A DNA stretch of 24,013 bases from an uncultured Gammaproteobacteria bacterium. Lineage in GTDB: Bacteria; Patescibacteriota; Patescibacteriia; UBA2196. Made by a program: the position numbers and the translations under genes. The stretch is taken from assembly GCA_964506375.1 (NCBI GenBank), contig CAZDKR010000001.1:1672-25684 (forward strand). Direction: 5' to 3'. Shown here one piece after another: positions 5,995 through 13,697 of the stretch. The notes below the pieces were generated by a model that had not been told where the DNA came from, did not search any database, and saw nothing but the letters and a program-made list of their open reading frames with translations. Numbering within the stretch: position 1 is the stretch's first letter; the number at the start of each line of letters is the position of its first letter.

Positions 5995-6100
5995 AATACA
6001 ATAACCAAAAGATAAGAGATAAGGAGTAAGCAATTTCCAATAACCAAATAAAATTTCTTCTATTTTGCTATTGATTCTTGTATTTTGGTTATTAAGAACT

Positions 6101-7351
6101 ATGTCTTCTGACTTTAACATCAAAACCATAAAACCCAATGATGGGCTTAAGTACAAGACCCAGTTTAAAAAGAAACCGCGATTTAGAATTCGGGGGGCGG
6201 TGTTTTTTATTTTAATTATCTTTTTTCTGGTTTTATTCACTTATGTTTTGCCAAGTGTGACTGTAGTTGTTGTTCCAGAGACAAGAAAAATTGAAAAGGA
6301 ATTTGAAATTCAGTTGACAAGCGATGAATCCAAGGTTGATTTAAATAGAAATATTTTTCCAGCCCGCATTATTGAAGCGAGCGAGAAGGGCGAAGGAAGT
6401 TTTGAGGCGACTGGCGAGAAAGACATTGGGGACAAGGCAAGCGGTCAGGCAGTATTTTATAACCACACTGGCCGGTCTCAGCCTTTAACCACCCAAATAG
6501 ATTTAATTAATGATCAGGGCATAGCTTTTGCTGTCAAAGAGAATATAACTATTCCTCCTGCCAGGGTTGACGAAGATGGCAATATTGTTCCCGGCGAGAT
6601 TGTGGCTGAGATTGAAGCCAAAGAACCGGGCGAAAAGGGAAACGCGGGTCCGGGCAGGATTAACATTTCAGCCTTAGACATTGAAAGGCAAGAAAAGATT
6701 TATGGTGAAATTAGCCAGGGTTTAAGTGGCGGCAATTCTAAGATTGTGGTAGTTGTTTCCCAGGAAGATTTAGATAATGCCAAGGATGAATTGATAAGAG
6801 AGTTAGAACCAAAAGTTAAGGAAAAGTTAAAAAAGAAAGCCGGGGATGATATGTCAGTAATTGATAAACTGATAAATTTTGACGTTTCAGAAATTTCAAA
6901 ATCAATGGATGTGGATGCTGAAGTGAAAAATTTTGATATGAGTTTAAATTTAAAAGCTAAAGCCTTGGTTTATAACAATAAGGATCTAAGTTCATTTTTA
7001 AAAGACCAGATTTTAAAAGAATTACCAGCGGGGCAAACAATTGCAGAATCAGAATTTGGTCCAGAATCCCAAGCGCCTGGCAAGGGGTTGGAAGTTGAAG
7101 TTAGGAATTTTGATATCAATTTAGGCATGGCTGATTTAAAAATCAAAGCAGTTTTTCCTGTTTCAGAAAAGATTGATTTAGTCAAAATTAAGAGAAATAT
7201 TTTAGGCAAAAGGGAAAAGGAAGCCAGGAGATATATTTTATCATTGCCCAATGTCAAAGACGTGAAATTTATTTTTTCCTTGAGCTTAACTGATAAAATT
7301 CCGAAGTTTGAGAATAAGGTGAGGGTGAAATTGGGAGAAGTGATGAAATAA
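6101..7351 (+). CDS. Membrane-anchored protein with baseplate-J-like domain (CPR-type conserved hypothetical)
   Basis: ATG 6101 preferred over TTG 6065. Single TM segment (AVFFILIIFFLVLFTYVLPSVTVVVVP), ATGEKDIGDKASGQAVFYN, and AKEPGEKGN...I motifs recalled from this family. Confidence 0.6.
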   Translation: MSSDFNIKTIKPNDGLKYKTQFKKKPRFRIRGAVFFILIIFFLVLFTYVLPSVTVVVVPETRKIEKEFEIQLTSDESKVDLNRNIFPARIIEASEKGEGSFEATGEKDIGDKASGQAVFYNHTGRSQPLTTQIDLINDQGIAFAVKENITIPPARVDEDGNIVPGEIVAEIEAKEPGEKGNAGPGRINISALDIERQEKIYGEISQGLSGGNSKIVVVVSQEDLDNAKDELIRELEPKVKEKLKKKAGDDMSVIDKLINFDVSEISKSMDVDAEVKNFDMSLNLKAKALVYNNKDLSSFLKDQILKELPAGQTIAESEFGPESQAPGKGLEVEVRNFDINLGMADLKIKAVFPVSEKIDLVKIKRNILGKREKEARRYILSLPNVKDVKFIFSLSLTDKIPKFENKVRVKLGEVMK

Positions 7352-7505
7352 GAGATAATTTTTAACTTTTTTCACATTATGTTAATATGGCTGCGCGGTT
7401 ATTACAACATGCAGGTAAGACTAAGAAATTAAAAGTTCAAAGATAAAATAAATTTTTGTTTGCCCTTGAGTATTTAGGGTCATTGTGGCCAAAAGAAAGG
7501 AAAAC

Positions 7506-7535
7506 TTGACAATATTTTTAATTTTATTTTATAAT
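7506..7535 (+). promoter_or_regulatory. Consensus sigma70 promoter for the infA-rpsI block
   Basis: TTGACA (7506-7511), 18 nt, TATAAT (7530-7535), with an A-rich upstream tract. Confidence 0.8.
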
Positions 7536-7656
7536 AACAGCATAAGCAGAAATAACAAAAATGCTAAAAATAAAAAGAATTTAATTAAGCCAAAGAATAA
7601 TAAATTCTGGATAATTTTTTATACCCAGAATTTTATAAATATCTTTTAATATTTTA

Positions 7657-8010
7657 ATGTCAGAGGAACAGAAAAATAACCAAAATTTGGATAATAGCCG
7701 AAATGGCAGGGATAAGGTTGATAAAAGCGGTACTGATTTTGCGCAAAAGGATTTAAAAAAGATTGACCAAAAGGATGATTTTAGCAATTTTAAAGTTAAC
7801 AGAAAGGGCTTTATTGAAGTTGACGGCGAGGTAATAGAGACATTGCCAAGCATTACTTTTCGCGTTAGATTAGAGAATGACTATGAGATTTTAGCCCGTC
7901 TTTCTGGCAGGATGAGAATGAACAGGATAATGTTATTGCCAGGAGATAAAGTCAAAGTTGAAATAAGTCCATATGATTTGACCAAAGGGAGGATTACTTA
8001 TAGGTATTAA
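7657..8010 (+). CDS. infA: Translation initiation factor IF-1 with ~45-aa N-terminal extension
   Basis: [12 protein letters not shown]...FRVRLEN...[38 protein letters not shown]. Confidence 0.95.
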
Positions 8011-8916: not shown

Positions 8917-9567
8917 ATGGATAAAAATAATAAAAAAGCCCAAGAAGAATTAAGCGATAAGTCATCTGATGAAAAAGATGATAAGGTTAAGGCTGAAGAA
9001 AAAACAGAAGAAGTGAAAAGCAAGGATGAAAAGATTGCGATCACAGAGGACTCTGAGAAAGTGCAGGGAGTTCAGAAAAAATCTCAAAGTTCTCAGAGAG
9101 ATTCAGAGCCTTCAGTGGTTGCAGAGGAAACATCTAAAAAAGAGAATAGTAGCCAAGAGTTAAAAACCCAAACTGTTATAGTCAAAGGAAAAAAGAAGAA
9201 AAAGAGGATGCCGTTTTTGAGAGGTGGCAGGGGACAGGCGCATATAAAATCAACATATAACAATACGATTGTGACCCTTACTGATTTAAATGGCGCTGTT
9301 TTGGCTTGGGCTTCAGCAGGCAAGTGCGGTTTTAAAGGGCCGAAAAAGTCAACCCCTTACGCAGCCGGAGTTATTGTTAGATCACTCTCAGATAAAGTGA
9401 AAGAATTAGGCATTAAAGAATTAGATGTTTTTGTTAAAGGCGTGGGCACAGGGCGAGAGGCGGCTATTAGGGCTCTTGATTCTTGCGGTGTAAGGGTTGT
9501 TTCTATAAAAGATGTAACTCCTATACCTCATGGCGGCTGCAGGCCAAGGAAAAAGAGACGGGTTTAG
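8917..9567 (+). CDS. rpsK: 30S ribosomal protein S11 with ~95-aa charged N-terminal extension
   Basis: [16 protein letters not shown]...[18 protein letters not shown]...[12 protein letters not shown]. Confidence 0.95.
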
Positions 9568-10334: not shown

Positions 10335-10522
10335 TTTCTGTTGAAAGATTAAAGCATTCAAACTATTCTGAACTGCAAGATTTTGTTTAATGTTTTGCAA
10401 CTTGAAATTAAATAAAAAATATTAAAATTAAAAATTAAATCCCGGCCCTTGGCAGGTTTTCCGTTAAGCCTTCTGTACTTATAACGGGATTCCTTGTTTT
10501 GCTTGGGATAAAATTTATCTAT

Positions 10523-11398
10523 ATGCAACCGATTTCTATTGCTCAAAAAAAGGAATTTAAACAAGAATCTCCTAATAAAGGTCAATTTATCATTGAGCCT
10601 CTTTATCCGGGTTATGGCTTAACTTTGGGCAATGCTTTAAGGAGAGTCCTGTTGTCTTCTTTAGAAGGGGTGGCTATTACTTCAGTCAGGATTAAGGGGG
10701 TAGACCATGAATTTTCTGCTATTGACGGAATTAAAGAGGACGTGGTTGACATTATTTTAAATTTAAAGCAGGTAAGGTTTGAAGTCAGCGGCGAATTTGA
10801 GGAGCCAATTAAGTTGGAGTTAAATGCCAAAGGTGAAAAAGAGGTTAAGGCAGGAGATTTTAAAAAAGTGGCAGGAGTAAAAATTGCCAATCCAGATTTA
10901 TTGATTGCCACCCTAACTGATCCTCAGGCGCAATTAGAGTTAGAGGCTTGGATAGAAAGAGGACGTGGTTACTTGCCAACTGAAATGATGGCTACCAGAT
11001 CGCCAGAAGGCGGAATTGGCTCGGCAAGAGAAAAAGAAATTGGAGTGATTGATATTGACGCTATTTTTTCTCCGATTAAAAAAGTGGCCATTAATACTGA
11101 AAATGTCCGGGTCGGGGAGATGACTAACTGGGACCGCTTAATTTTGGAATTAGAGACTGATGGCACGATTACTCCTGAAGAAGCTCTTAAAAAGTCAGCC
11201 CAAATTTTAGTGGATCAATTTTCATTCTTTTTAGAGAAAAAGAAGGCAGAGAAGAAAAAAGAGGAAGTTAAGAAAGAAGAGAAAGTGACGGATGAAAAAG
11301 ACAAGGAAAAAGATGAGGATAAGGAAAGCAAAAAGGAAGAGGAAAAAACAGGAGAGAAGCCTAGAAAAAGAGGAAGGCCAAAAAAAGAGGAGAAATAA
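10523..11398 (+). CDS. rpoA: RNA polymerase alpha subunit; alpha-CTD replaced by a charged tail
   Basis: ATG 10523 preferred. IEPLYPGYGLTLGNALRRVLLSS, HEFSAIDGIKED, IDAIFSPI, LETDGTITP. Confidence 0.96.
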   Translation: MQPISIAQKKEFKQESPNKGQFIIEPLYPGYGLTLGNALRRVLLSSLEGVAITSVRIKGVDHEFSAIDGIKEDVVDIILNLKQVRFEVSGEFEEPIKLELNAKGEKEVKAGDFKKVAGVKIANPDLLIATLTDPQAQLELEAWIERGRGYLPTEMMATRSPEGGIGSAREKEIGVIDIDAIFSPIKKVAINTENVRVGEMTNWDRLILELETDGTITPEEALKKSAQILVDQFSFFLEKKKAEKKKEEVKKEEKVTDEKDKEKDEDKESKKEEEKTGEKPRKRGRPKKEEK

Positions 11399-12280: not shown

Positions 12281-12413
12281 ATGCGAATGTGAATATAATA
12301 CAATAAAACTTTATCTATTATATGTGGATGGTTTAAATATTTGGATGGTTTAAAAGCAAAGCGCTTTGCATTTAAACGCATTTAAACCACATTTATCTGA
12401 CCAGTATTCGCAT
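12281..12413. repeat. Nested inverted repeats in the rplM-rpsI spacer
   Basis: ATGCGAAT (12281-12288)/ATTCGCAT (12406-12413). TGGATGGTTTAAA occurs twice, opposed by two ATTTAAAC. Central perfect palindrome GCAAAGCGCTTTGC (12356-12369). Confidence 0.7.
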
Positions 12414-12419
12414 ACAATT

Positions 12420-12920
12420 ATGCCTAAAAAAGACATAAAAAAAGAAGATAAATCTGTAACAAAAACCACAAAAAAGCAAGTGGCCGCTCTTGGAGTTAAA
12501 GAAGAAAAAGAAGAAGAGAGTAAGAAAATAGATGACTTTATTAGGGCTGTCGGTCGTCGTAAAAGCGCGGCAGCTAGAGTGCGCCTTTATCCAAACGGAA
12601 GTGGAAAAATAGAAATTAATGGCAAGGATTATAAACAATATTTTCCGCTTTTTGAGTTAAATAAAAAAATAACCCTGCCGTTAAAGTTAGTGGGCAGGAG
12701 AAATGATTTTAACTTTACAATTAAAGTAGCTGGTGGTGGACCTGTTGGGCAAGCTGATGCCTGTTCTCATGGAATTACCAGGGCATTGATTAAATTTAAT
12801 GAAGATTATAAAAAAACTCTGCGCGCTGCTGGTTTTGTGACCCGCGACCCAAGAGTCAAAGAAAGAAAAAAATATGGTTTGAAAAAAGCCAGACGCGCCC
12901 CGCAGTGGCAGAAGAGGTAA
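12420..12920 (+). CDS. rpsI: 30S ribosomal protein S9 with N-terminal extension
   Basis: ATG 12420 preferred. AVGRRKSAAARVRL, VAGGGPVGQA, RDPRVKERKKYGLKKARRAPQWQKR. Confidence 0.96.
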   Translation: MPKKDIKKEDKSVTKTTKKQVAALGVKEEKEEESKKIDDFIRAVGRRKSAAARVRLYPNGSGKIEINGKDYKQYFPLFELNKKITLPLKLVGRRNDFNFTIKVAGGGPVGQADACSHGITRALIKFNEDYKKTLRAAGFVTRDPRVKERKKYGLKKARRAPQWQKR

Positions 12921-13099: not shown

Positions 13100-13636
13100 T
13101 TATTTTAACCCAAAAATTTTTTTTAGATTTGTTTCAAAGCTGACATGGTCCGCAATTATATAATTAAACCATTTACTTTCTTTTGCACTTGGAATCAAGG
13201 TATAAATATATTCAATTGCGTCATAAGGGTAAATCCAAACGCTTTTCTGCAAGCGATAAAAGCCGATTTCTTTTAATATTTTTCTTAGATTATCTCTAAA
13301 AACTCTTTTATTTTCAGGTATGTCAAAAATTAGAATACGCCATTTACCGTCCCACTCTTTTTTATTCTTCGCAGCCCTTTCAATAATAATTTTTTTTATA
13401 AGCTCATAACCTTTAGGGGTTAATTTATAAAGGATTTTTTTGTCTATTTCAGTATTTTTTAAATACCCCCTTCTTTTTAAATTGGCCAGCGTGTAATATG
13501 GAATAGGTTTTGTGCCACCAACCAAAGATTTTATATAGTCATAAGGATTTATGGCATAAGTTATTATTTTATTATTTCCATCAATAAAAGCTTCAAGTAA
13601 TTTTTTTGTTTTCTTGTTTAAGTTAAGAGATTTCAT
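13100..13636 (-). CDS. PaaX-like protein (winged helix + Cas2-like ferredoxin-fold domain), not CRISPR-linked here
   Basis: LANLKRRGYL...YKLTPKG (wHTH wing) and WDGKWRILIFDIPE..R..RD.LR..L...GF..LQKSVW. Start at 13636 is preferred because the 13681 ATG lies in the palindrome. Confidence 0.8.
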   Translation of the reverse strand: MKSLNLNKKTKKLLEAFIDGNNKIITYAINPYDYIKSLVGGTKPIPYYTLANLKRRGYLKNTEIDKKILYKLTPKGYELIKKIIIERAAKNKKEWDGKWRILIFDIPENKRVFRDNLRKILKEIGFYRLQKSVWIYPYDAIEYIYTLIPSAKESKWFNYIIADHVSFETNLKKIFGLK

Positions 13637-13648
13637 ATGGTTAGTGTT

Positions 13649-13680
13649 TGTCATTTTGCTACGATCGTAGCAAAATGACA
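13649..13680. repeat. Perfect 32-bp palindrome centred on CGATCG, upstream of the PaaX-like gene
   Basis: TGTCATTTTGCTACGA|TCGTAGCAAAATGACA. Confidence 0.95.
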
Positions 13681-13697
13681 TAATGGAAATTTAGAAT

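Follow-up and report, generated by a model that had tools for sequence, protein, structure and literature searches.

An AT-hook-pattern peptide on a disordered tail in place of the RNA polymerase alpha C-terminal domain of a Patescibacterium

The C-terminal domain (alpha-CTD) of RNA polymerase's alpha subunit is the textbook means by which UP elements are read and activator signals, such as those of CRP, are received. Here we analyse rpoA, the alpha-subunit gene, in a 24,013-nucleotide (nt) stretch of DNA from a member of the Patescibacteria (assembly GCA_964506375.1, contig CAZDKR010000001.1, positions 1,672 to 25,684; hereafter the window), whose product lacks this domain and ends instead in a putative AT-hook on a disordered tail. 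Several described systems share parts of this arrangement. WhiB7 of Actinobacteria carries the AT-hook KRPRGRPRK and, bound to sigma-A region 4, binds DNA rich in A/T immediately upstream of the -35 element (PMC6282962). CarD of Myxococcus xanthus combines an HMGA-like AT-hook domain with an acidic stretch, and its N-terminal domain binds the RNA polymerase beta subunit (PMC4374960, PMC2919716). The xenogeneic silencers H-NS (Q/RGR) and Lsr2 (RGR), both nucleoid proteins, place an AT-hook-like R-G-R core in the A/T-rich minor groove (background in PMC4466236). Hodgkinia and Tremblaya are described as having naturally lost the alpha-CTD while keeping the N-terminal domain (NTD), with one sentence adding that the loss is 'also present in Parcubacteria' (PMC8321222); the paper cited there for Parcubacteria does not discuss RNA polymerase in its main text (PMC4508563). 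Full-text literature on AT-hook, rpoA and alpha-CTD in combination with phylum names yielded no description of an AT-hook on RpoA or in Patescibacteria. Loss of the alpha-CTD in Parcubacteria is therefore already known, from a one-line mention, and what is new is the AT-hook on the RpoA tail, of which we found no description.

The rpoA coding sequence occupies positions 10523..11398 (+) of the window and encodes 291 amino acids (aa) followed by a TAA stop codon. Its open reading frame (ORF), which ends at 11398 (+), could start at TTG 10499 or ATG 10523; the latter was chosen because orthologues start here with MxxIPxPxKIEF. The gene order is infA, rpmJ, rpsM, rpsK, rpsD, rpoA, rplQ, rplM and rpsI, with rpsM-rpsK-rpsD-rpoA-rplQ syntenic in relatives, and this position within the standard alpha operon identifies the product as the housekeeping alpha subunit. 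Its nearest named relatives are those of Candidatus Kuenenbacteria and other Patescibacteria (69–78% identity), and the window has a GC content of 36.8%. In brief, this housekeeping alpha subunit belongs to a Patescibacterium near Candidatus Kuenenbacteria.

The NTD, with its Rpb3/Rpb11-type dimerisation domain and its insert domain, spans aa 1–238 (10523..11236, +) and is well folded as judged by Pfam, AlphaFold2 and solved RpoA structures. Pfam identifies RNA_pol_L (PF01193) at aa 25–233 (E=1.5e-23) and RNA_pol_A_bac (PF01000) at aa 55–183 (E=4.7e-28). In the AlphaFold2 model, built from an 81-sequence alignment, the predicted confidence (pLDDT) is 95–98 over most of aa 1–238 and lower in the loop at aa 160–170. 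All the best matches in the Protein Data Bank (PDB) are solved RpoA structures (E about 1e-56), which align to residues ~12–260 only; full-length solved RpoA chains have 305–368 aa, compared with 291 here. Since the NTD is intact, assembly of the core (alpha2-beta-beta') should be normal. The C-terminal part of the protein reads ILVDQFSFFLE(238)-KKKAEKKKEEVKKEEKVTDEKDKEKDEDKESKKEEEKTGEK-PRKRGRPKK(280–288)-EEK-TAA, with E238 ending at nt 11236.

The domain that usually follows the NTD is missing. Pfam does not find RNA_pol_A_CTD (PF03118) in RpoA, even at E≤1. We also built a profile from 19 Patescibacterial CTDs and searched it against six-frame translations. Across 80 genome loci, this profile recovered 31/31 loci whose rpoA ORF has a CTD and, with all six frames searched, gave no match to the 49 CTD-less species-representative loci; in the six frames of the 24-kb window it found no CTD, its sole weak match being the helix-hairpin-helix of RuvA. 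Both searches agree with an earlier note on this DNA, made from the sequence alone, which had described an NTD followed by no helix-hairpin-helix CTD. The next gene, rplQ (ribosomal protein L17; 11496..11846, +, from the ORF call), begins only 97 nt after rpoA, which leaves no space for a displaced CTD. The rpoA stop codon is TAA, not a recodable TGA. An identical 291-aa RpoA is present in two independent assemblies (ERZ1742239 and ERZ27227322), and a 99%-identical fragment from a third source (P0002) has the identical hook.

These observations bear directly on an assembly or annotation artefact, i.e. that a frameshift, a misassembly or a recoded stop masks the CTD, or that the CTD is a separate gene nearby. 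A frameshifted or displaced CTD was rejected, as the CTD profile matched only loci whose rpoA ORF already has one; misassembly was rejected, as the same protein is found in two assemblies. The frameshift or misassembly that, according to the earlier note, might have removed a normal CTD is thus not seen here, and no CTD remnant occurs in any frame. Moreover, the architecture is common to hundreds of orthologues, and we found nothing in favour of an artefact. We consider an artefact of this kind to have a negligible probability: it is already contradicted at the rpoA locus, and a stand-alone CTD gene was judged within 24 kb only. The alpha-CTD is absent at the rpoA locus and within the 24-kb window.

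The NTD is followed by three short segments. A disordered Lys/Glu/Asp-rich linker of 41 aa (aa 239–279; 11237..11359, +) has low pLDDT and no secondary structure. It leads to the putative AT-hook PRKRGRPKK (aa 280–288; 11360..11386, +), recognised by the Pfam AT_hook model and by conservation in orthologues, with the core R-G-R-P at aa 283–286 (11369–11380). The translation closes with a short acidic cap, EEK, and the TAA stop (11387..11398, +). The earlier note had described a linker of ~40 aa, rich in Lys, Glu and Asp, ending in PRKRGRPKK at 11360–11386, and these coordinates are exact. The flanks of the core are basic on both sides (P-R-K-[RGRP]-K-K), and the hook is the sole [RK]G[RK]P in the six reading frames of the 24-kb window. 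The isolated tail peptide matches only AT_hook (PF02178) in Pfam, with E=0.016 and 15.4 bits against a gathering cut-off of 17.4 bits, the model being just 13 positions long. The same family is the only one matched in orthologous tails (42/50 at E≤0.1; best E=2.4e-4), which upholds the assignment of the tail to the AT-hook pattern made in the earlier note. A phmmer search of the last 25 RpoA residues against PDB sequences gave no match because the peptide is too short. By these sequence criteria, the RpoA tail carries a bona fide AT-hook-pattern peptide with putative DNA-binding activity.

We then compared RpoA tails across the Patescibacteria. The pool consists of 336 distinct Patescibacterial RpoA sequences of plausible length from three sets: (i) the best 120 word-index matches; (ii) the best 150 cluster representatives, at 50% identity, of an exhaustive HMMER search; and (iii) rpoA ORFs from 80 GTDB species-representative genomes. 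The length filter left out the cluster representatives P0121 (569 aa), P0122 (526 aa) and P0127 (664 aa), which contain two alpha-NTD stretches or long N-terminal additions and are possible fusions, duplications or miscalled ORFs.

The distribution of tail types is sharply partitioned. None of the 125 sequences with a CTD has a basic-flanked hook, compared with 87 of the 211 without; an incidental GRP tripeptide lacking basic flanks occurs in 3 of the 125. A metagenome scan of 80 further loci gave, among the matches listed, 52 CTD bearers that lack the hook, a single hook bearer and 24 sequences with neither feature; the listed matches are mostly distant CTD-bearing relatives, and the scan serves as an extra check of exclusivity only. 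The hook never coexists with the CTD in the sequences surveyed. The anticorrelation between the alpha-CTD and RGRP proposed in the earlier note is therefore borne out (0/125 and 0/52 CTD-bearing sequences with a hook versus 87/211 CTD-less ones), and RGRP is found, with basic flanks, in many CTD-less orthologues beyond the window.

Within the 87 bearers, the hook is strongly patterned. Its consensus is (P/K)-K-K-R-G-R-P-K-K-(E/S/T)-(E), and its flanking positions are nearly constant: K/R at -1 in 87/87, K/R at -2 in 83/87, K/R at +1 in 84/87 and K at +2 in 84/87. There is one hook per chain in 86/87 bearers and two in one sequence. The hook ends 2–8 residues (mode 3–5) from the C-terminus, and its core is usually followed by K-K and then E/D/S/T.

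One alternative is that the tail is a neutral low-complexity extension, like other Lys/Glu-rich extensions of Patescibacterial proteins, in which RGRP is incidental. Such extensions do occur in the window, where IF-1 (7657–8010), S11 (8917–9567) and S9 (12366–12920) have Lys/Glu/Ser-rich N-terminal extensions of about 52, 105 and 62 residues, respectively; however, no AT-hook was found in any of the three. The basic-flanked motif is present in 82 of 211 CTD-less tails, compared with 0.32 (maximum 2) in 200 composition-preserving shuffles, so the hook is far commoner than chance or Lys/Arg richness would give. It is also kept between proteins that have diverged widely (median NTD identity between hook-bearer pairs 54%, minimum 42%). 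Aligning 50 diverse tails shows no variation at G, R, P or the second K after them, while the other columns average 29% identity. The codons have turned over: in 14 loci, the first R is encoded by AGA, AGG or CGC, G by all four GGN codons, the second R by five Arg codons and P by all four CCN codons. Synonymous turnover within the core RGRP indicates selection on the peptide rather than on the DNA, and these comparisons show that strong purifying selection acts on the amino-acid sequence of the terminal octapeptide (P/K)KKRGRPKK. A neutral extension is already contradicted by the conservation statistics, and we regard it as highly improbable.

We built a neighbour-joining tree and average-linkage clusters from a 218-column NTD alignment. 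At 60% NTD identity, hook bearers are spread over at least seven clusters, interleaved with CTD-bearing and tail-less sequences. Parsimony on the neighbour-joining tree gives 25 hook changes and 38 CTD changes, but the tree is too weakly resolved for these numbers to be trusted as counts of independent events. The loci of hook bearers have a lower GC content than those of CTD bearers (0.394 versus 0.450), a difference confounded by phylogeny.

The segment between the NTD and the hook is unalignable among hook bearers, yet its length is narrowly distributed (median 43 aa, interquartile range 39–47), compared with 13 aa for the linker of CTD-bearing relatives. The earlier note's view of a disordered tether agrees with the AlphaFold2 model of the RpoA in the window, in which aa 240–291 have pLDDT 48–61 and no secondary structure. 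Linkers of hook bearers consist of 35% Asp/Glu with a median net charge of -8. That of the window is mixed Lys/Glu and not net acidic, with 20 Asp/Glu versus 24 Lys/Arg in the last 55 residues.

This layout invites a different explanation, in which the hook is a protein-interaction or regulatory motif that docks on sigma, beta-prime or another factor through an acidic surface of this partner, folds back on the acidic linker (autoinhibition) or serves as a modification site. Autoinhibition between an acidic tail and a basic motif occurs in HMG proteins, and a hook preceded by a strongly acidic linker resembles that layout. The mutual exclusivity of hook and CTD would also fit replacement of a contact between the CTD and sigma or another factor. 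However, no partner can be named, the motif exactly matches a well-characterised DNA minor-groove module, and the RpoA of the window lacks the net acidic linker that this explanation draws on. We therefore consider a protein-interaction role improbable, though less so than a neutral origin.

Our favoured explanation is that the folded alpha-CTD was lost and that a single AT-hook on a ~40-residue disordered, charged tether was fixed in its place, where it would anchor A/T-rich DNA; we give this explanation about an even chance of being correct. Each polymerase has two alpha subunits and would thus carry two dangling hooks. At A/T runs that lie around the promoter or upstream of it, the R-G-R core of each may enter the narrow minor groove, and the two hooks jointly would form a weak, bivalent, low-specificity DNA anchor. 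The acidic linker probably stops non-productive sticking of the hook and sets its reach. Such an anchor would replace the DNA-binding role of the CTD at the A/T-rich upstream minor groove, not its role in activator docking. We infer the DNA target from the behaviour of AT-hooks elsewhere and from the WhiB7 precedent. The CTD-bearing Patescibacterial relatives are informative here: R..N(A/C)L is kept in 96/125 and G.K(S) in 93/125, two motifs that we take to correspond to the DNA-binding '265 determinant' of the Escherichia coli alpha-CTD. Since most of these relatives keep the determinant, contact with the upstream minor groove is probably ancestral in the phylum.

A bolder form of this explanation is that several Patescibacterial lineages swapped the folded alpha-CTD, which has long been regarded as universal in bacterial RNA polymerase, for a nine-residue AT-hook on a length-tuned tether, so that the holoenzyme would read upstream A/T tracts through two unstructured 'tentacles' and have no platform for class I activators. 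The hook would then be a convergent, minimal solution to UP-element reading that has been gained or lost repeatedly. We put this forward only tentatively.

The main rival of the favoured explanation is that the tail is a generic nucleic-acid or nucleoid tether, i.e. a basic C-terminal cluster with non-specific electrostatic affinity for the AT-rich chromosome or for nascent or ribosomal RNA rather than for promoter-upstream elements. We consider this possible but rather unlikely. Much of what speaks for such a tether, together with several further observations, weighs against the favoured explanation. First, the hook is absent in 111–123/211 CTD-less relatives, and some, such as the RpoA of Kerfeldbacteria type (216–231 aa), have almost no tail; with over half of the CTD-less relatives hook-less, the hook is not required to compensate for loss of the CTD. 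Second, the last 12 residues carry a net charge of +3 or more in 58/125 hook-less CTD-less tails. Third, in the clade nearest to the RpoA of the window, the C-terminus forms a continuum in which the motif decays stepwise from KKRGRPKK through KKRGRKKK, KKRARKKK and KKRTRKKK to KKKAKSKK, with the proline often lost; a generic electrostatic role fits this decay as well as a groove-specific one. Fourth, in 3/52 species-representative loci that reach rpsI, ribosomal protein S9 has KKRGRPKK in its N-terminal extension as well (L038, 3024–3527, +, extension MTPTKKTAPKTPATKKRGRPKKK; also L043 and L077). In L077, S9 has the hook while RpoA retains its CTD, which makes the hook a recurrent Patescibacterial add-on, here on an RNA-binding protein. 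Fifth, a single AT-hook binds DNA weakly in other systems (HMGA proteins).

Other features of the tail are harder to reconcile with a generic tether. G and P are invariant in about 87 sequences despite synonymous codon turnover, whereas an electrostatic patch needs no Gly-Arg-Pro. A specific geometry is suggested by a hook that is present once per chain, at a set distance from the C-terminus and on a linker of constrained length. Furthermore, about half of the hook-less CTD-less tails end acidic or neutral, so a basic end is no general requirement.

We also examined the DNA around the best promoters of the window. A sigma-70-type promoter of perfect consensus (TTGACA-18-TATAAT; 7506..7535, +) lies upstream of infA-rpmJ-rpsM-rpsK-rpsD-rpoA-rplQ, and four relatives keep it at the corresponding place before infA, which indicates that it is a real promoter. 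The A-rich tract upstream of it that the earlier note had named as a target of the hook, CCAAAAGAAAGGAAAAC, has G residues interrupting its A runs, which are just 4 nt long. Over the 26 nt that precede the -35 hexamer, A+T is 54%, compared with 68% for the intergenic DNA of the window, and the two other good, correctly oriented promoter candidates in the window have 46% and 58% A+T upstream of -35 (n=3 overall). Nor are the upstream A/T blocks at the infA promoter positionally conserved among five orthologous loci. This lack of proximal A/T enrichment would be expected of a generic tether, and the A-rich tract appears to be a poor candidate for the hook's target. A richer A/T block, AAGATAAAATAAATTTTTGTTT, lies at 7440–7462, about 45–65 nt upstream of the -35 hexamer, and could be within reach of the 40-residue tether. 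A comparison of promoters between tail classes over all long loci comprised 17 stringent promoters, 2 of them in the hook class, and with these numbers it is underpowered and allows no conclusion on a UP-like role, so that the proposed promoter target is neither supported nor refuted.

The same operon shows two further features of its non-coding DNA. A stem-loop, AAATTCTGG...CCAGAATTT (7602–7633), lies in the 5' leader right before the infA start codon and is kept in 5/5 orthologous loci (the window, L163, L164, L165 and L166), although its inner part varies; the structure matched no Rfam family and probably serves as a regulatory leader element. In the whole window, scans for Rfam families and tRNAs gave tRNA-Arg(CCG) only. 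The spacer between rpsD and rpoA (10335–10522) is unusually long (188 nt) and has an extremely A/T-rich block, AAATTAAATAAAAAATATTAAAATTAAAAATTAAA, with a segment richer in GC, CCCGGCCCTTGGCAGG, downstream of it; the spacer could be an internal promoter or the rpoA leader.

Several other genes of the window deserve mention. Directly upstream of the infA promoter is a 428-aa ORF (6065–7351) with no Pfam match; a similar ORF (403–412 aa, also with no Pfam match) occupies the same position in 4/4 relatives fetched, which makes it a conserved gene of unknown function. At 13100–13681 (-), a 193-aa protein matches the PaaX-type central Cas2-like domain (PF20803, E=3e-22) and, weakly, CRISPR_Cas2; its neighbours are genes of the murein-ligase and FemAB types, and we saw no CRISPR array within the window. 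At positions 10–720 lies a gene for a type IV secretion coupling protein of the VirD4/TraG type (DUF8128 and T4SS-DNA_transf; about 850 aa), upstream of clpB, alaS and the infA region. A gene of this type is also present at the upstream ends of L081 and L163–L165, and clpB is absent in L163–L165.

A large and environmentally abundant bacterial radiation has dispensed with the alpha-CTD, and in many of its members a eukaryote-style AT-hook has become fixed in exactly that position. Patescibacterial RNA polymerases can be sorted simply from sequence by the type of RpoA tail (CTD, hook, basic tail or no tail). Should the hook function in the way proposed here, these organisms would follow different rules of promoter architecture and transcriptional control, which would represent a natural experiment with a 9-residue peptide standing in for an 85-residue domain. 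Such a peptide could also help in the engineering of minimal polymerases or synthetic upstream-element readers.

Compared with the canonical RpoA, for which rrnB P1 of E. coli is the paradigm, the protein of the window shares an orthologous NTD, its position in the alpha operon, a flexible linker to a C-terminal module and the presence of two copies per enzyme, and both C-terminal modules are expected at the minor groove of A/T-rich DNA. It differs in that the folded helix-hairpin-helix CTD of about 85 aa is missing, the linker of hook bearers is about three times as long as that of CTD-bearing relatives, and the putative DNA-reading element is a 9-residue unstructured peptide. Nor does it offer a surface on which class I activators, sigma region 4 or Spx-type regulators could make contact.

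Among the other systems, WhiB7/WblC is the clearest precedent for a mechanism based on an AT-hook tethered to RNA polymerase. WhiB7/WblC, however, is a separate, inducible Fe-S regulator that acts at a subset of promoters, whereas the hook described here is part of a core subunit and would therefore be constitutive, with two copies on every polymerase. CarD, like WhiB7, is an accessory factor. CarD and the eukaryotic HMGA1 resemble the hook-bearing RpoA in combining a disordered AT-hook region with an acidic stretch, a likeness that holds for the linkers of hook bearers in general and less for the mixed linker of the window, but they have several hooks per chain, the basis of their high affinity, rather than one. 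The RGR core of H-NS and Lsr2 is shared with RpoA, including its degenerate KKRGRKKK variants; in H-NS and Lsr2, however, the motifs lie within folded domains of oligomerising, repressive nucleoid proteins and not on RNA polymerase. The alpha subunits of Hodgkinia and Tremblaya represent simple erosion, for which no replacement module, AT-hook or conserved tail is reported (PMC8321222), in contrast to the patterned tail that has taken the place of the alpha-CTD in many Patescibacteria.

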